A stretch of 64,000 nt of DNA, from positions 15,694 through 79,693 of the forward strand of contig MFWV01000007.1 in assembly GCA_001787405.1 (NCBI GenBank). The letters are read 5' to 3'. Origin of the DNA: Candidatus Pacebacteria bacterium RIFOXYA1_FULL_38_18 (lineage in GTDB: Bacteria; Patescibacteriota; Microgenomatia; UBA1400; PJMF01). Position 1 is the stretch's first letter. Every line of letters starts with the position of its first letter. Below, one piece after another: positions 4,820 through 51,482 of this stretch. A model generated the notes under the pieces. The model had not been told where the DNA came from and searched no databases. It was given only the letters and a program-made list of their open reading frames with translations. The translations under genes were made by a program, and so were the position numbers.

Positions 4820-5671
4820 ATGCCAAACATACGCAGAATTGGAGCTCATTTATCGACTAGTGGGGGAGTAGAAAAGGCTGTGGAGCGAGCGCATGGGATT
4901 GGCGCAAACACGCTCCAAGTTTTTTCTGGTAGTCCCAGGATGTGGCGTCGCACGCCTCTTGAGAAAATTGATGCGCGAGCAGTAAAACAGGCTCAAGAAA
5001 AATACGACGTTACCCCGATTTTTACTCACGCGTTGTACTTGGTAAACTTGGCTTCTGAAAACCCAGAATTGGTGGAGAAATCTGTTTCCGCTCTCAAACA
5101 TGATCTCCAATTTGATGCGCACATCGGTGGTGCGGGAGTAGTTGTACATCTGGGCAGTCATCAGGGAAGAGGTTTTGCGGCGGCGCGGGAGTCAGTTGCC
5201 AGATCCATCAAAGATATTTTGGCAGACACCCCCAAAAATTCTCATTTGTTAATTGAAAACGCCGCCGCCCACAACGGTAAAGTTGGTGGTCAATTGGAAG
5301 AAATAGCTTGGATTTTGGCAAAAGTTCATTCTCCCAGATTAGGTTGGTGCTTTGATACTTGTCATGCTTTTGCTGCTGGCTACACTTTGGCCGGAATTAA
5401 TCAACAAACAGACGCTTTGACAGTCATAAAAAAACTCAATTTATTTCCAGCTCTTAAATGCATTCATATTAATGACAGTAAAGATGCACTCAATTCCGGT
5501 CGAGATAGGCACGCCAATATTGGTGACGGTGAAATTCCTCGAGCAGATTTGAAACAATTTTTACATGATCAGCGCCTGACTCTACTACCAATTATTACCG
5601 AAGTACCTGGCATAGATGGCAATGGTCCAGACGCAGAAAATATTCGTCGCATCAAAAGCCTGGTAAAATAA
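4820..5671 (+). CDS. nfo: endonuclease IV (AP endonuclease, TIM-barrel)
   Basis: IGAHLSTSGG...ANTLQVF, LIENAA, CFDTCHAFAAGY; 283 aa. Confidence 0.85.
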   Translation: MPNIRRIGAHLSTSGGVEKAVERAHGIGANTLQVFSGSPRMWRRTPLEKIDARAVKQAQEKYDVTPIFTHALYLVNLASENPELVEKSVSALKHDLQFDAHIGGAGVVVHLGSHQGRGFAAARESVARSIKDILADTPKNSHLLIENAAAHNGKVGGQLEEIAWILAKVHSPRLGWCFDTCHAFAAGYTLAGINQQTDALTVIKKLNLFPALKCIHINDSKDALNSGRDRHANIGDGEIPRADLKQFLHDQRLTLLPIITEVPGIDGNGPDAENIRRIKSLVK

Positions 5672-46073: not shown

Positions 46074-46120
46074 AAAACTCCTTTATTGTAATCTAATTAT
46101 TGCTTTCCTCAAAATTACGC

Positions 46121-47161
46121 TTATATAGAATTTGCTCTTTCCAATGCTTGCTCAAGATCATTTATTACTTCCTTGGGTTGCTCTAGTCCGATAGAAAGTC
46201 TAAATAGTCTGTCATCAATTCTTTGATCAGAGTTATCTGAGAGATCCATCATGGTGGTGGGTTGTTGAATTAACGTTTCAGTACCACCAAAACTATGTCC
46301 AATCACGATTTTTTTCAAAGATTTAATGAATAGATGAGGATTCAGATTGTGTTTTATTTTGAATGAAATTATTGGTCCTACCGCATGAAAGACATCTGCA
46401 ATTAATAGTGATGAGCGTAAAAAATTAACTATTTTTTGTTTATTATTTTTAATTTTTTGATGTCTCAAATCGAGTGTTTTTAGACCTCTCATTATTAGCC
46501 AGCTATCACTTGCTGACAAAATTGCTCCCACCGTATGTTGAAGAAACTTAATTTGTTGAGCAAGTTGTGCATCGTTGGTAGCGATCATTCCACCAATGGC
46601 ATCTGAATGGCCGTTAATCATTTTCGTTAGACTTTCAACTACTAAATCTGATCCAAGTTGTAACGGTTTTTGTTCCAAAGCTGTAGCCAAAGTATTGTCC
46701 ACCACAGTGATGATGTTGTGCTGACGAGCAACTTTGCACAATTTATTAATTTGGAGCACTTCCAACATTGGGTTGGTTGGGCTTTCAAACCACAATAGTT
46801 TGCTGTGCGGAGTAATATTTTGAGAAAGTAGATCAACTTTTTTCAAATCAATAGATTTACTATTGATTCCTAACGGCTGGAATACTTTTTTCAACAGTCT
46901 GGTTGTCCCTTCATAGATTTGTTGATGGTGTAGCACCTCATCTCCTTTTTTGAGGAGTAATAATGAATTGAGAATAGCTGCCGAGCCTGATGCAAACACA
47001 AAAGCATGTTTGGCATGGTGAAGTGTGGCCAGTTTTTCTTCCAGCAACTGTCTTGTTGGATTTCCCACCCGACCATATTGAAAACCTCGATCGCTACTAG
47101 GTTTAGTCATGGGAAATACAGTTGAAAGTTCTATGGGAGGCACTAATCCTGGATTTTTCAT
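46121..47161 (-). CDS. Cys/Met-metabolism PLP-dependent enzyme (cystathionine gamma-synthase/beta-lyase/gamma-lyase family)
   Basis: PLP-Lys motif VVESLTKMINGHSDAIGG and the general fold of this family. Its start overlaps (ATGA) the stop of the upstream gene. Confidence 0.75.
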   Translation of the reverse strand: MKNPGLVPPIELSTVFPMTKPSSDRGFQYGRVGNPTRQLLEEKLATLHHAKHAFVFASGSAAILNSLLLLKKGDEVLHHQQIYEGTTRLLKKVFQPLGINSKSIDLKKVDLLSQNITPHSKLLWFESPTNPMLEVLQINKLCKVARQHNIITVVDNTLATALEQKPLQLGSDLVVESLTKMINGHSDAIGGMIATNDAQLAQQIKFLQHTVGAILSASDSWLIMRGLKTLDLRHQKIKNNKQKIVNFLRSSLLIADVFHAVGPIISFKIKHNLNPHLFIKSLKKIVIGHSFGGTETLIQQPTTMMDLSDNSDQRIDDRLFRLSIGLEQPKEVINDLEQALERANSI

Positions 47162-48240
47162 TGGATCCTTTCTTTAGTTTTTTTAGTTAGAAGCACAATG
47201 TGTCTGTGGCAACTTAGTGGCGGTTGATGGCTATCAATGCCGATACGATCTTGCATGTCAGCAATAATCAACCCATCTTTTTCCCAAGTTTTGAGATGAT
47301 CATTAAATGATCTAAACCACTCGCCATGACCGCTTTCGTCTTCAGCAAATACCACAAAACTTTCACCTTCTGGCTCAATCTCAACTATTTTGCCTCTCAG
47401 AAATTCTAGATGTTCTCCAAACTCTTCTTTGAGCTGGTTTAAATCAAAAATTCTTGTTTGCAAAGCATGAACTGCTTCGCTAGAGGGAAGAATAGTTTGA
47501 AGCTGGTGGTGAGAAATTATTTCTCTATCTAGTGATTTAGTTAGCTCATCACTAGTTGTGATATTAACAATGGCTACACCATCCTCATCAAGGACACGTG
47601 TTACTTCTTCATTGATTGATCTGCTGATAGCTGGTGGGCAACAGTTATCAATATGATCTCTCAGTACAAGTTGTTGAGAAGCCTCATGAAGCGAGGTTTG
47701 TCTAGCATCTTGGTGCAGTGTTGTTACTTGTTGAAATTGTTTCTCATCTACCGCTTTTAGTATGTCTGAGTCAATATCAATTACCGATAATTGATTCCAA
47801 TTTGTTTCTAAAGTAGTTTGAAGAAATTTTTGAAAATCTGGCACACCTTCTACAATAGCCAAGCCAAAAATGGCTGCATCAATTGGTTTCTGCTCTAAAT
47901 TTTCGCGCAGTATTGCCACTGATGATTCTTTTTGAAGAAGTAATCTGAGATTTAACCCAACTGGCGGTGTTCCAGCAATGTCTTCCAAGTTAATACCTTG
48001 TCGTTCTGCTTCAATCACTCGCTGTTGAGTATTTTCGTATTGAGCGTGTTGTCTTAAACTTTGCCCAAATTTAGTCCCAATTTCTCCTGCTAAGTTGGTA
48101 ACTGATTCATCTTTACAATCATTTGCCAGCAACTCAAATGTCTTGAGTGATAGCCAGTTTTTCCAGGATGATTGCTGATCCTTTATGCTCTTGCCTAATT
48201 CAAGAGCAAGATGATGTTTAATTCTTAATTTTTCTGTCAT
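47158..48240 (-). CDS. hypothetical cytoplasmic protein; first gene of a T-box-controlled operon
   Basis: A 360-aa acidic protein with no motif I can assign. It lies directly downstream of the T-box leader and is translationally coupled to the PLP enzyme. Confidence 0.5.
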   Translation of the reverse strand: MTEKLRIKHHLALELGKSIKDQQSSWKNWLSLKTFELLANDCKDESVTNLAGEIGTKFGQSLRQHAQYENTQQRVIEAERQGINLEDIAGTPPVGLNLRLLLQKESSVAILRENLEQKPIDAAIFGLAIVEGVPDFQKFLQTTLETNWNQLSVIDIDSDILKAVDEKQFQQVTTLHQDARQTSLHEASQQLVLRDHIDNCCPPAISRSINEEVTRVLDEDGVAIVNITTSDELTKSLDREIISHHQLQTILPSSEAVHALQTRIFDLNQLKEEFGEHLEFLRGKIVEIEPEGESFVVFAEDESGHGEWFRSFNDHLKTWEKDGLIIADMQDRIGIDSHQPPLSCHRHIVLLTKKTKERIQ

Positions 48241-48327
48241 TTTTCTTTCTTTTTAAATAAAATATTATTACTTTTTTGGCGCCGATTTAGCGCGATTCTA
48301 TAGTCTATTTCCATAATTACCTTTCTT

Positions 48328-48690
48328 TTTTAATACTAAAAAACGCCCCGCACATACACCTGAATGGTGTACATGCAAGGGCGTTAAGATCCAACGCGGT
48401 ACCACCTTGCTTTATTTGCCTTTTTCTACAAAAAATCCTGCGAACGCAGGACTCGAAAAAAAGGAAAACCTCATTTCGAGCACTCTGTTTCTAGTGTGTC
48501 ATGCTCTTTCGCTATTATGGGCGATCCCATTCCTTGCTACTTTCCAAGATGAAATTTGGATTTGGTGTGGACTGCTCAGGAAGGTATTTCATTCTGTTAA
48601 AGCTAGTTCAGCTTTCACCAACCGCTGAATCTCTGTTTTCCGCTTTAGGAATTACTAAGTTTCCGTCACTGCATTTCTGTTAACTTGTTC
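48328..48690 (-). promoter_or_regulatory. T-box riboswitch leader with a Met (AUG) specifier, antiterminator and intrinsic terminator
   Basis: All on the minus strand. The T-box sequence AAGGUGGUACCGCG is the reverse complement of plus 48395..48410. The antiterminator has A1 AAGG/CCUU, the 7-nt bulge UGGUACC and A2 GCGUU/AACGC. The terminator is AACGCCCUUGCAUGUACACC-auuc-AGGUGUAUGUGCGGGGCGUU plus UUUUUU. Stem I has an AGAGA bulge, a distal loop GGUUGGUGAAAG and a specifier loop ...AGA-AUG-A.... A Stem III-like hairpin lies at 48436..48451. Confidence 0.7.
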
Positions 48691-48695
48691 GTGAA

Positions 48696-48723
48696 ATTAT
48701 ACACATGGTTTTTTAGTTTGCAA
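48696..48723 (-). promoter_or_regulatory. strong sigma70 promoter TTGCAA, 16-bp spacer, TATAAT (TG-extended) driving the T-box leader
   Basis: Read directly on the minus strand. A TG sits immediately 5' of the -10 hexamer. Confidence 0.6.
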
Positions 48724-48761: not shown

Positions 48762-51482
48762 GTGAGTATGGAAATCAATTTTACAAAGATGTTTGAAAGT
48801 TTACGACGGGGGTGGTACGGACTGACCCGTAAAGTTCGGATTTTGATGATTCGTCTGTCTCGTGGTCGCACTCGTCGTTTTGCTCACTTCTCCCCTGCCC
48901 AACAAGAATTGGCCAAAGTACAACGCATGCGTCTGCTTGCTCGTGGAGCAGTGATGGCGGTTATTGCGGGGATTGTTGGATTTTTTGTAATGTTTGCTTG
49001 GTATTCTCGCGATTTGCCAAAGCCTGGTGAAGTGATCCGTCGTGAAGGATTTAGTACCAAACTTTATGATCGCAAAGGAGTATTACTCTATGATCTTTAT
49101 GACACTGAGAGACGCACGCCAATAACTCTAAACGATACTCCCGCTTATTTGGAACAAGCTACGGTAGCTATCGAAGACAGGGATTTTTATCGTCACAGTG
49201 GTTTTGATTTATTGACCGCTCTGCGGATTCCTTACAACATTCTTTTTCGCGGTCGAGTAGTTGGTGGCTCAACCTTGACTCAACAATTAGTAAAAAATGC
49301 TTTATTAACAAATGAGCGGACCATCTCTAGGAAATTCAAAGAATTGGTACTTTCTATCCAAATTGAACGCACTTTTACCAAGGATCAAATCTTGGAAATG
49401 TATTTGAATGAAGCACCTTACGGTGGAACTTCTTGGGGAGTTGGTACGGCTTCAGAAATTTATTTCAATAAACCAGTTGCTGAATTAAATTTGATGGAAT
49501 CGGCTTTTTTGGCAGGACTTCCTCAACGCCCCAGTGTTTACTCACCGTTTTCAGGTAAAAAAGACAAAGACGGTAATCCTTATTGGAAGATTCGTACCGA
49601 AAGTGTGTTGCGCGCCATGGAAAAATCCGGTGATATTACCAAGTTACAAATGGAAGAAGCAATTTCCTCTTTAGATAATTTGGAATTCAATACGACTGCT
49701 GCCAATATTAAAGCCCCACATTTTGTTTTTTATGTTAGAGATCAGCTGGAAGAAATGTTTGGTTTGGAATTGGTAGAGGCTGGTGGTCTGAAAGTAACTA
49801 CTACTTTGGATTTACCACTTCATGAACGGGCTCAAAGTATTGTTGCCGAAGAAATCGAGGCAGTGGAAAGTTTGAATATCACCAATGGATCAGCCGTGAC
49901 AATGGATCCTAGAACTGGTGAGATATTAAGCATGGTGGGAAGCAAAGATTATTTTAATGATGACATAGATGGCCAATTCAATGTGGCTGCGGATGGTTTG
50001 CGCCAACCCGGATCTTCGATCAAACCAGTTACTTATTTAGGTATGTTACGTCGTGGTTATTCTCCCTCCTCCATGCTGATGGATGTAGAAACTACTTTTC
50101 AGGCCAATGACAAGATCGATCCTTACGTTCCCAAAAACTATGATGGGGTTTTCCGAGGTCCAGTAAACTTGCGCAGTGCCTTAGGCAGTTCACTAAATAT
50201 TCCAGCCGTCAAATCAGTAGCTATTGTAGGCATTGAAGATTTTCTGCAACTGGCTTTTGATTTGGGTTTCAAAACTTTGGAGCCGACTAAAGAAAATTTA
50301 CAGCGTTTTGGTTTTTCAATCACTTTGGGTGGTGGCGAGGTTCATTTACTGGATACCGTAACTGCTTACAGTGCTTTTGCCAATAAAGGTTTTAAAGTTG
50401 AGCCGGTTTCTATTTTGAAAGTAGAAGACAAGGACGGTCGAGTTTTGTTTGAACACAAACAAGTGCCCGGCAAACAAGTCATCAGTGAGGGTGAGGCTTT
50501 TATTATTAATGATATTCTGTCTGATAATAATGCTCGCTTGTTGGCTTTTGGTGCCAACTCGCTTCTCAATACCGGTCGACCAATTGCAGTCAAAACTGGT
50601 ACTACCAACGAACAAAAAGACAACTGGACGATTGGTTGGAGCCAAGAAGTAATGGTGGGTGTTTGGGTGGGTAACAATGATAATAGCTCGATGCGTCAGG
50701 TAGCTTCTGGTATTACTGGTGCCTCACCTATTTGGCGACGAATTATTTTGACGGCTTTAGAAATGGGCTATCAAGCTCCGGCTTGGGAAGTTCCTGCTGG
50801 AGTGATTCGGCAAGAAGTAGATAGTATTTCTGGTTATCCAGCGCACGATGGTTTTTCCACTAGAACAGATTATTTTTTACAAGGCACTGCGCCCACCACT
50901 CCTGATCCTATTCATGCCAAACTAAAGGTTTGTCGAGATGATGAAAATAAATTGGCTACGGAAGCCAAAATTAGTGCTGGAGATTACAACGAAAAAGAAT
51001 TTGTTGTACTCAAAGAAAATGATCCAGTTAGCGAAGATGGTCGCAATCGCTGGCAAGAAGCCATCAATACTTGGATCAATGGCCAGTCGGATTCTCGTTA
51101 TAAAGTGCCTACAGAATACTGTGGAGATGCACAAGAAATCTCGGTTCGTATTTCCAGACCAGAGAACGAAAAATCATACAATGAACAAGACATCGAAGTT
51201 CATATTGATGCTGGAAGCAATCAGGGTATTGAAAAAATCGAGATTTGGGTAGATGGAACATTACGGGAAACAGTAAATGATCGCAGTTATAGAGGTTGGA
51301 TCAATTTTCCAACAGGCAAACATGAGCTTTATGCGATTGCTTTTTCCAGAGATAATAAACAAGCCAAAAGCAACACGGTCAAGATAGGTTCTGGTGGTGC
51401 TGATTGGAAAGATCCTGAACCCACTCCCACCCCCACTCCTACTCCTACTCCTACCCCCACTCCTGCTCTACCCACTCCCTAG
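48762..51482 (+). CDS. class A penicillin-binding protein (bifunctional glycosyltransferase/transpeptidase) with a C-terminal extension and Pro-Thr tail
   Basis: N-terminal TM helix. GT51 motif EDRDFYRHSGFD. Transpeptidase motifs SSIKP, SLN and KTGT. The C-terminal roughly 200 aa ends in (PT)n. Confidence 0.85.
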   Translation: MSMEINFTKMFESLRRGWYGLTRKVRILMIRLSRGRTRRFAHFSPAQQELAKVQRMRLLARGAVMAVIAGIVGFFVMFAWYSRDLPKPGEVIRREGFSTKLYDRKGVLLYDLYDTERRTPITLNDTPAYLEQATVAIEDRDFYRHSGFDLLTALRIPYNILFRGRVVGGSTLTQQLVKNALLTNERTISRKFKELVLSIQIERTFTKDQILEMYLNEAPYGGTSWGVGTASEIYFNKPVAELNLMESAFLAGLPQRPSVYSPFSGKKDKDGNPYWKIRTESVLRAMEKSGDITKLQMEEAISSLDNLEFNTTAANIKAPHFVFYVRDQLEEMFGLELVEAGGLKVTTTLDLPLHERAQSIVAEEIEAVESLNITNGSAVTMDPRTGEILSMVGSKDYFNDDIDGQFNVAADGLRQPGSSIKPVTYLGMLRRGYSPSSMLMDVETTFQANDKIDPYVPKNYDGVFRGPVNLRSALGSSLNIPAVKSVAIVGIEDFLQLAFDLGFKTLEPTKENLQRFGFSITLGGGEVHLLDTVTAYSAFANKGFKVEPVSILKVEDKDGRVLFEHKQVPGKQVISEGEAFIINDILSDNNARLLAFGANSLLNTGRPIAVKTGTTNEQKDNWTIGWSQEVMVGVWVGNNDNSSMRQVASGITGASPIWRRIILTALEMGYQAPAWEVPAGVIRQEVDSISGYPAHDGFSTRTDYFLQGTAPTTPDPIHAKLKVCRDDENKLATEAKISAGDYNEKEFVVLKENDPVSEDGRNRWQEAINTWINGQSDSRYKVPTEYCGDAQEISVRISRPENEKSYNEQDIEVHIDAGSNQGIEKIEIWVDGTLRETVNDRSYRGWINFPTGKHELYAIAFSRDNKQAKSNTVKIGSGGADWKDPEPTPTPTPTPTPTPTPALPTP

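Follow-up and report, generated by a model that had tools for sequence, protein, structure and literature searches.

A probable tyrosine-specific T-box leader ahead of two uncharacterised genes and tyrS in a Candidatus Pacebacteria genome

Which amino acid would a bacterium of the candidate phyla radiation (CPR) be monitoring with a T-box riboswitch that is placed ahead of two uncharacterised genes? The question is raised by a minus-strand leader in a 64,000-nucleotide (nt) stretch of the genome of Candidatus Pacebacteria bacterium RIFOXYA1_FULL_38_18 (contig MFWV01000007.1, positions 15,694 to 79,693; the whole stretch is called the window here). The leader is followed by a gene for a protein with a predicted S-adenosylmethionine (SAM) methyltransferase fold (gene 1), a gene for a pyridoxal phosphate (PLP) enzyme (gene 2, or the PLP gene) and tyrS, the gene for a tyrosyl-tRNA synthetase (TyrRS). 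The initial annotation of this DNA had described a methionine-specifier T-box with its own promoter and with a competing antiterminator and terminator, upstream of a metabolic operon without a synthetase. The T-box, its promoter and the competing structures were all found on the minus strand in the places given for them; the specifier and the composition of the operon turned out to be different. We consider it very probable that the leader is a class I transcription-terminating T-box that responds to tRNA-Tyr and controls gene 1, the PLP gene and tyrS, a reading built on direct observation of the sequence and structure elements, of their covariation, of an invariant UAC triplet and of the linkage to tyrS and to tRNA-Tyr genes.

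The leader is ~350 nt long and contains no minus-strand open reading frame (ORF) of at least 40 amino acids (aa), in agreement with the ~360-nt ORF-free leader described initially, and the TTGCAA-N16-TATAAT promoter claimed for it was located as well (Table 1); from this we infer a transcription start near 48689. Promoter-like sites as such are not enriched in the region (10 found versus 11.4 expected from shuffles), and the leader promoter draws its support from its position, a sigma-70-like promoter being found again just 5' of Stem I in homologous leaders. A scan with the Rfam T-box model RF00230 in E-value mode, which the initial annotation had named as a check, matched the model over its full length with E=5.3e-19 for the local search and E=5.2e-17 for the whole window, and this T-box is the sole one in the 64 kb.

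For comparison we assembled 19 genome and 39 metagenome loci that encode homologs of gene 1, among which T-box leaders were found upstream of gene 1 in ~25 distinct loci. Covariation in Stem I was evaluated in 13 cleanly delimited leaders, automatic delimitation being unsuccessful for several others. In this alignment 91.1% of the cells are paired, 17 of the 19 pairs exhibit double-sided changes, and the covariation score (0.552 versus 0.198 in shuffles) was reached by none of 500 shuffles. The two helices that bound the specifier loop are particularly informative: P1, below the loop, is paired in 100% of cells and P2, above it, in 86.5%, with double-sided changes at 4/4 of its pairs and at all eight pairs of P1 and P2 together. 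Because P1 and P2 covary, the boundaries of the loop are fixed, and its 3' strand is G-A-A-(A/U)-U-A-C-(C/U/G). In the window the loop strands are ACUUAGUA (5') and GAAAUACC (3'), so that the specifier region has GAAU-GAAAUACC-UUCC on its 3' side, and three overlapping triplets might be considered there, namely AUG (the initial annotation), AUA (the Rfam register) and UAC. Of the three, UAC is the one that is the same in the specifier loops of all homologous leaders, and the bases on either side of it differ (A, U or G before it and C, U, G or A after it). UAC is also what the window leader yields under the rule of TBDB (PMC7778990), in which the 3' end of the bulge is the point from which one counts back to the specifier. 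The fixed loop boundaries, the invariance of UAC and the TBDB rule together identify the specifier as one for tyrosine. Higher up in Stem I, the bulge and distal loop that had been recognised initially by their AGAGA and platform-like motifs (ACAGAGA and GCGGUUGGUGAAAGC in the window) align with high posterior probability to AGAGA and GGUUGGUGAAAG, which are conserved in RF00230, and by analogy with known T-boxes the two would together make up the platform for stacking on the elbow of the tRNA.

The T-box sequence of the window, AAGGUGGUACCGCG, aligns to conserved RF00230 positions, and the antiterminator with AAGG/CCUU, UGGUACC and GCGUU/AACGC that had been proposed around it was recovered in the comparison. 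We ran a small covariance model (R1) of the T-box core against the window and 53 loci, and the 28 cores that it yielded were realigned with Infernal, as the MAFFT alignment split the 3' strand of A2 over two sets of columns. The model and the Rfam E-value mode also recovered the T-boxes of L032, L043, L044, L048 and L049, whose bulge variants UGGUAAC or UGGUAUC had been missed by a GGTGGTACC regular expression. Across the 28 cores, 92.3% of the antiterminator cells are paired versus 78.7% in shuffles, 7 of the 11 pairs change on both sides, and the covariation score of 0.388 compares with 0.152 in shuffles, none of the 500 attaining it, and with no more than 0.073 when the register is slid; the covariation that the initial annotation had proposed to look for is thus present in this element as it is in Stem I. 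Anchored counts in A2 gave G-C or A-U at position 1, G-C, C-G or U-A at position 3 and six pair types at position 4. The terminator, described initially as an overlapping stem of ~19 base pairs (bp) plus U6, was scored as a 15-pair stem by the terminator scan and can be drawn by eye as 19 bp with one bulged C. It shares the strand AACGCCCUUGC with the antiterminator and is the more stable of the two on folding (-28.4 versus -11.7 kcal/mol). Each of the 22 unique leaders analysed has an equivalent terminator, with energies of -21 to -37 kcal/mol and a U5-8 run behind it, and in every case it engages the CCUUG strand. UGGU is invariant in the homologous leaders. The earlier deduction that this bulge calls for a tRNA with discriminator A73 stands, but its extension to tRNA-Met does not, since tRNA-Tyr carries A73 too and UGGU therefore does not single out methionine.

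The genes behind the leader are in keeping with a tyrosine specifier. Gene 1 and the PLP gene share 4 nt at their junction, tyrS begins 47 nt after the PLP gene, recG comes next, and the terminator scan gave no terminator-like site between gene 1, the PLP gene, tyrS and recG; recG is possibly a further member of the T-box-controlled operon. The Cys/Met PLP enzyme that had been noted downstream is indeed encoded by gene 2, but the operon had been thought to lack a synthetase, and its third gene is tyrS, the product of which scores 322.3 bits versus a cut-off of 113.8 for TIGR00234.

The association with tyrosine extends to the relatives, 40 of which had enough flanking sequence for synteny counts. 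A tyrosine sensor, that is a T-box, a Tyr leader peptide or both, lies ahead of the gene 1-PLP pair in 39 of these 40 loci, and a TyrRS gene lies behind the pair in 36. A T-box alone is combined with a bacterial-type TyrRS after the PLP gene in 19 loci, and a leader peptide alone with an archaeal-type TyrRS in 15. One further locus has a T-box only and an archaeal-type TyrRS, one has both sensors and an archaeal-type TyrRS, two have both sensors and no TyrRS nearby, one has only the leader peptide and no TyrRS nearby, and one has neither sensor and no TyrRS nearby. Of 24 loci counted with a T-box, 21 have a TyrRS gene after the PLP gene (19 bacterial-type and 2 archaeal-type). The pair also stands behind a tyrosine sensor where tyrS is not adjacent (L044, L048 and L009). 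The archaeal-type enzymes match NF006330 with 364-381 bits (cut-off 220). Synthetases of this archaeal/eukaryal type follow the pair in about half of the loci (for example L013:6944-8077, L016:6944-8062 and L021:6958-8067; also L032:6472-7569 and L055:6470-7564), and they occur almost exclusively with the leader-peptide sensor, the bacterial type occurring with the T-box. The proposition that the T-box tracks tyrS, loci without a T-box lacking tyrS, was rejected, as those loci carry the archaeal-type TyrRS, which went undetected with a bacterial-type TyrRS as tblastn query.

Where the T-box is absent, a Tyr-rich leader-peptide attenuator precedes gene 1 (for example ...TSYYYYELLYGG..., MENKNFWIRQTSYYYYELLYGGEPFIA and MIMIRLKNNLYYYYYYPAGGLY). 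Within the leader ORF, the segment ...UAC GGC GGG G... recurs as the 3' arm of the CCCCGCC-loop-GGCGGGG terminator that lies downstream and is followed by U5-8; as far as can be judged from the sequences, this is the classic attenuator arrangement of alternative pairings. The region matches the Rfam Phe_leader model weakly (36.8 bits, E=0.018). The peptides are conserved (...SYYY(Q/E)LLYGG..., with up to six consecutive Tyr) and either replace or adjoin the T-box; they were seen in L009, L012, L013, L015-L018, L020, L021, L034, L036-L042, L044, L045, L047, L048, L050, L053, L055 and L057 (coordinates, for example, L021:4862-4945 and L053:1316-1384). L041 has two of them in tandem, and L018, L020 and L042 have an additional upstream ORF, MKTVAKAKFYFYFNSACGGGGTCDC. 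Several of the records compared (L003, L007, L010, L012, L014, L017, L019 and L020) have clearly CPR-type gene content under the titles 'uncultured Gammaproteobacteria' or 'uncultured Pseudomonadales', which are probably errors of taxonomic labelling.

In 11 of the loci a tRNA-Tyr gene follows the T-box terminator, with the anticodon loop CUGUAAA (anticodon GUA) and discriminator A73 (L011:4850-4936, L019:4810-4898, L023:4360-4449, L028:1010-1096, L035:1162-1247, L049:4375-4461, L056:594-679, L038:6994-7066, and also L006, L033 and L043). It starts 0-13 nt past the U-run in 8 of the 11, and in all 11 the A73 is complementary to the U of UGGU. With tRNA-Tyr directly behind the terminator of a tyrosine T-box, the riboswitch appears to control the gene of its own ligand. 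Between the window terminator and gene 1 we found no tRNA remnant and no Tyr leader peptide, and by comparison with these relatives the window would have lost the tRNA-Tyr gene. A leader-peptide attenuator in the window was considered and rejected, as the sole small ORF before gene 1 has one Tyr and no terminator after it. This ORF of 25 codons (MEIDYRIALNRRQKSNNILFKKKEK; 48312..48235, minus strand), which lies between the terminator and gene 1, has AAAGG upstream, and its stop and the start of gene 1 overlap (AUGA); it is not rich in Tyr and probably incidental.

Degenerate tRNA-like remnants occupy the position of the tRNA-Tyr gene in other relatives (L004:4847-4935; L007/L008 ~4865-4940; L010 ~4826-4925; L005 ~4855-4980). 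They keep the acceptor stem and T-arm, their anticodon arm is wrecked, and they could be processing signals or decaying genes; ARAGORN labels the 89-nt remnant of L004 'tRNA-Asn GTT', with an aberrant anticodon loop. A conserved hairpin, CCGUG...CACGG, was seen between the tRNA or tRNA-like element and gene 1 in L004, L006, L007 and L011, ~30-60 nt upstream of gene 1 and followed by the Shine-Dalgarno-like GGAGAGGAGG. Reduced forms of Stem I, which consist of a K-turn and a short hairpin with UAC in its loop, were found in L005:4590-4793, L027:2859-3060, L054:126-340, L055:4110-4297 and L038:6711-6941. Their scores against RF00230 are 33-69 bits, their hairpin loops (..UUUUUACA or AUAUACC) have UAC alone in common, and they retain the intrinsic terminator, which points to action on transcription. 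In L038 (6711-7066) the reduced T-box, with the loop AAAUACC, is downstream of the PLP gene and tRNA-Tyr comes immediately after it, in a locus with an archaeal-type TyrRS; this tRNA-Tyr has 73 nt and a short variable arm. A long variable arm is normal for bacterial tRNA-Tyr.

If the tyrosine T-box works by the established T-box mechanism, from which binding of the tRNA, detection of its charging state and read-through are taken here, the sigma-70-type promoter would initiate the ~350-nt leader, and Stem I would offer UAC (48586-48584) to the GUA anticodon of tRNA-Tyr while the AG bulge and distal loop stack on the elbow of the tRNA. The free 3'-ACCA of an uncharged tRNA-Tyr would pair with UGGU in the 7-nt bulge and stabilise the weak antiterminator, so that RNA polymerase would read into gene 1, the PLP gene and tyrS. 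Tyr-charged tRNA could not make the ACCA/UGGU pairing, and the stronger terminator with its U6 would then stop transcription near 48338.

Several observations weigh against this reading. The RF00230 score lies under the Rfam gathering score of 93 bits, the curated annotation threshold, and a default Rfam scan of the window lists two tRNAs only and no T-box, so that default annotation overlooks the leader; the same cut-off is missed by 20 of the 27 T-box-core leaders tested against Rfam, and six leaders at the equivalent position in relatives exceed it (94-103 bits, those of L003, L011, L019, L044 and L048 among them). Stem III, which had been noted initially as a hairpin and is extended in the window, itself looks like a terminator because its inner hairpin is followed by U6. 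A GC-rich hairpin of 5-7 bp and variable sequence, followed by U5-7, occupies this place in 24 of 26 leaders, usually ~30 nt ahead of the T-box sequence, and by its sequence is similar to an intrinsic terminator or a strong pause site within the leader. A promoter-like site just 5' of tyrS (46112..46085, 9/12 matches) might allow some basal expression of tyrS independent of the T-box. The genome's own tRNA-Tyr is not encoded within the window, so that the match of anticodon and discriminator rests on the relatives. Finally, the 3' strand of the specifier loop has 8 nt (GAA-A-UAC-C), of which the Rfam alignment taken alone puts AUA after GAA, and the specifier UAC is followed by C48583. Most T-boxes have a purine directly after the specifier.

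Some of these points would suit a decaying or non-functional T-box relic, with the operon expressed constitutively or from internal promoters. The sub-gathering score and the promoter-like site upstream of tyrS could be so explained, as could three non-canonical pairs in Stem II, and CPR genomes are reduced. We nevertheless give this explanation little credence: the functional elements are all intact, compensatory changes have preserved the helices in leaders flanked by proteins that share only 38-60% identity, the strong terminator is followed by U6, and UAC and UGGU are invariant.

If the leader is a working T-box, the Rfam register (GAA-AUA-C) might still suggest an isoleucine specifier, with AUA as the triplet right after GAA or with a dual AUA/UAC specifier as a variant. 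The codon does directly follow GAA in some T-boxes, for example that of glyQS. The triplet in this register is, however, UUA in L010, L026, L044 and L048 and different again in L030, with UAC constant throughout; the reduced Stem I loops share nothing but UAC, the TBDB rule leads to UAC, and Ile-related genes are present in no locus, all of which makes an isoleucine T-box very improbable. The methionine T-box of the initial annotation, in which tRNA-Met(CAU) would read AUG (48592-48590) ahead of a methionine/cysteine metabolic operon, has practically no chance of being correct, for although the string AGAAUGA exists with its AUG followed by A, gene 2 is a Cys/Met-family PLP enzyme, UGGU is compatible with a tRNA-Met having A73 and Met T-boxes before met genes are known in Firmicutes (PMC3771891 and PMC7913692), the A and U of this AUG belong to the last two pairs of P2, which covaries in the 13 leaders, AUG occurs at that place only in the window (homologs have CGAAAUACC, UUGAAAUACC or CAAAAUACC), the specifier-loop alignment gives another codon, UAC, in all leaders, the operon has tyrS and not metS, and the relatives have tRNA-Tyr genes and leader peptides rich in Tyr, with nothing that relates to methionine.

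The features of the window leader and the genes behind it are collected in Table 1. A putative Stem II S-turn and a putative Stem IIA/B pseudoknot were both placed by the Rfam alignment, with three non-canonical pairs in Stem II and an F-box that reads CCCAUAA, and a hairpin equivalent to the one inserted after them is visible in homologous leaders.

Table 1. Features of the tyrosine-type T-box leader and the downstream genes, in window coordinates
Feature	Positions	Strand	Basis
Predicted sigma-70-type promoter, -35 TTGCAA (48723-48718), 16-nt spacer, -10 TATAAT (48701-48696)	48696..48723	-	10/12 matches
T-box leader, RF00230 model positions 1-219, end to end	48374..48678	-	85.1 bits
Stem I: basal GC/GC and K-turn (AGUGAC / UGA), P1 GGAA/UUCC, specifier loop, P2 AUUC/GAAU, AG bulge, distal loop	48574..48672	-	Rfam alignment and covariation
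AG bulge ACAGAGA (48636-48630) and distal loop GCGGUUGGUGAAAGC (48625-48611)	48611..48636	-	Rfam alignment
Specifier triplet UAC (tyrosine)	48584..48586	-	Invariant in homologous leaders; loop bounded by covarying P1 and P2
Predicted Stem II and Stem IIA/B region (UGGGAUCGCCCAUAA, 48529-48515)	48515..48573	-	Rfam alignment only
Extra hairpin GAGCAU...GUGCUC between Stem IIA/B and Stem III	48478..48506	-	Insertion in Rfam alignment
Extended Stem III; inner hairpin UCCUGCG-UU-CGCAGGA (48451-48436), then U6 (48435-48430)	48419..48464	-	Sequence and comparison
Antiterminator: A1 GCAAGG/CCUUGC, 7-nt T-box bulge UGGUACC (48404-48398), A2 GCGUU/AACGC	48375..48410	-	Covariation
Intrinsic terminator, stem 48385-48342, six-U run ending at 48338; overlaps 3' half of antiterminator	48338..48385	-	Terminator scan and folding
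Gene 1, 360 aa, predicted class I SAM-methyltransferase fold	47158..48240	-	AlphaFold2 model, pLDDT (predicted local distance difference test) 89
Gene 2, 346 aa, Cys/Met-metabolism PLP enzyme, cystathionine gamma-lyase-like	46121..47161	-	PF01053, E=2e-98
Gene 3, tyrS, bacterial-type TyrRS, 397 aa	44880..46073	-	TIGR00234, PF00579

The product of gene 1 has no Pfam or NCBIfam match, and its structural model is that of a generic class I SAM-methyltransferase fold. A protein recorded for Candidatus Pacebacteria bacterium RIFOXYB1_FULL_39_46 matches it with 100% identity, and the gene 1 homologs with an organism name are all from Patescibacteria except one labelled Marinilabiliales, which confirms the CPR origin that had been suspected from the beginning. 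Invariant motifs of the family are DH-x-G-N-C-C-P-P and GHGEWF, with His338, Cys344 and His347 conserved, a pattern that hints at a site for a metal or for cysteine-based catalysis on the methyltransferase fold. The window protein and that of L003 have an extra ~50 aa at the N-terminus, modelled with low confidence. The gene 2 product stays under every NCBIfam equivalog cut-off; among solved structures, cystathionine gamma-lyases are the nearest to it, and its profile and structure comparisons gave no tyrosine-specific clue. Elsewhere in the 64-kb window the alpha and beta subunits of phenylalanyl-tRNA synthetase are also encoded, and the divergent gene for a PBP1A-type protein (48762-51482, plus strand) ends in a (Thr-Pro)n repeat, ...PEPTPTPTPTPTPTPTPALPTP (~51400-51482).

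In kind, the window leader resembles the tyrS leader of B. subtilis, the archetypal tyrosine T-box (Henkin and Grundy, as cited in PMC2494555). The two share the UAC specifier for tRNA-Tyr(GUA) and, as proposed for the window, the regulation of tyrS, the class I layout (Stem I with K-turn, specifier loop, AG bulge and distal loop; Stem III and, as predicted for the window, Stems II and IIA/B) and an antiterminator that has UGGN in its bulge and is in competition with an intrinsic terminator. A tyrosine T-box before tyrS is the family archetype, and the window leader is thus an ordinary element in its kind. It differs from the B. subtilis leader in its CPR rather than Firmicute host, in the two unrelated genes between leader and tyrS, in the pyrimidine after the specifier, the 8-nt 3' loop strand, the U-run after Stem III and the extra hairpin between Stem IIA/B and Stem III, and in its score under the Rfam cut-off. 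With the metICFE-mdh leader of S. aureus, which has an AUG specifier and responds to tRNA-Met (PMC3771891 and PMC7913692), it shares the position before an operon with a Cys/Met-family PLP enzyme that does not open with a synthetase gene, whereas its own specifier is UAC and its operon ends in tyrS.

The tyrosine T-box regulon of Firmicutes comprises tyrS, an NhaC-family transporter, a tyrosine biosynthesis operon and phenylalanine-4-hydroxylase (PMC2494555), so that tyrosine T-boxes are able to control genes of tyrosine supply besides tyrS. A pair of methyltransferase-fold and cystathionine-gamma-lyase-like genes is not listed in that regulon, nor is a tRNA-Tyr gene, and the phrase 'tRNA gene' has 0 occurrences in PMC2494555. 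The leader peptides of the relatives (not of the window) recall the proteobacterial attenuators of amino-acid operons, of which the Phe, Trp, His, Leu and Thr leaders are in Rfam (PMC3766115), in their short ORF of Tyr codons and in an ORF end that repeats the terminator 3' arm; they differ in their CPR hosts, in sensing tyrosine and in replacing or adjoining a T-box at the same operon. The reduced forms in L005, L027, L054, L055 and L038 have a shortened Stem I like the class II T-boxes of actinobacterial ileS (PMC7778990, PMC11297988), but they carry an intrinsic terminator; the window T-box, by contrast, has a full-length Stem I.

T-boxes have been described as confined to Firmicutes, Actinobacteria, Chloroflexi as well as Thermus/Deinococcus, plus some Deltaproteobacteria such as Geobacter (PMC3766115). 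Our literature search returned no paper on T-boxes in CPR (Patescibacteria, Microgenomates or Saccharibacteria), an empty result that is no proof of their being unpublished, no relevant paper on a T-box upstream of the tRNA gene of its own ligand, and no paper joining leader peptide, attenuation and Patescibacteria. The present locus and its relatives extend T-box regulation to the candidate phyla radiation, and the number of leaders that score below the Rfam gathering cut-off shows why such T-boxes go unseen.

Less expected than the element itself are the placement of a T-box directly upstream of the gene of its own ligand tRNA in relatives, and the retention of gene 1 and the PLP gene between a tyrosine sensor and tyrS across changes in the type of sensor and the type of synthetase. 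The pair appears to have remained under tyrosine-specific control through swaps of T-box and Tyr leader peptide, and of bacterial and archaeal TyrRS, so that two unrelated tyrosine sensors converge on the same two uncharacterised genes and provide a testable lead to their function. CPR bacteria are thought to lack most amino-acid biosynthesis. We tentatively propose, as an idea with somewhat less than an even chance of being right, that genes 1 and 2 serve an unrecognised function in tyrosine starvation in CPR bacteria of the Microgenomates type, and that the ancestral operon had tRNA-Tyr directly behind the tyrosine T-box, the window being derived from it by loss of the tRNA gene. The function of the pair could be to obtain or salvage tyrosine, or it could be an activity on tRNA-Tyr or TyrRS. 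If this proposal is true, the ancestral riboswitch would have controlled the synthesis of tRNA-Tyr, its own ligand.

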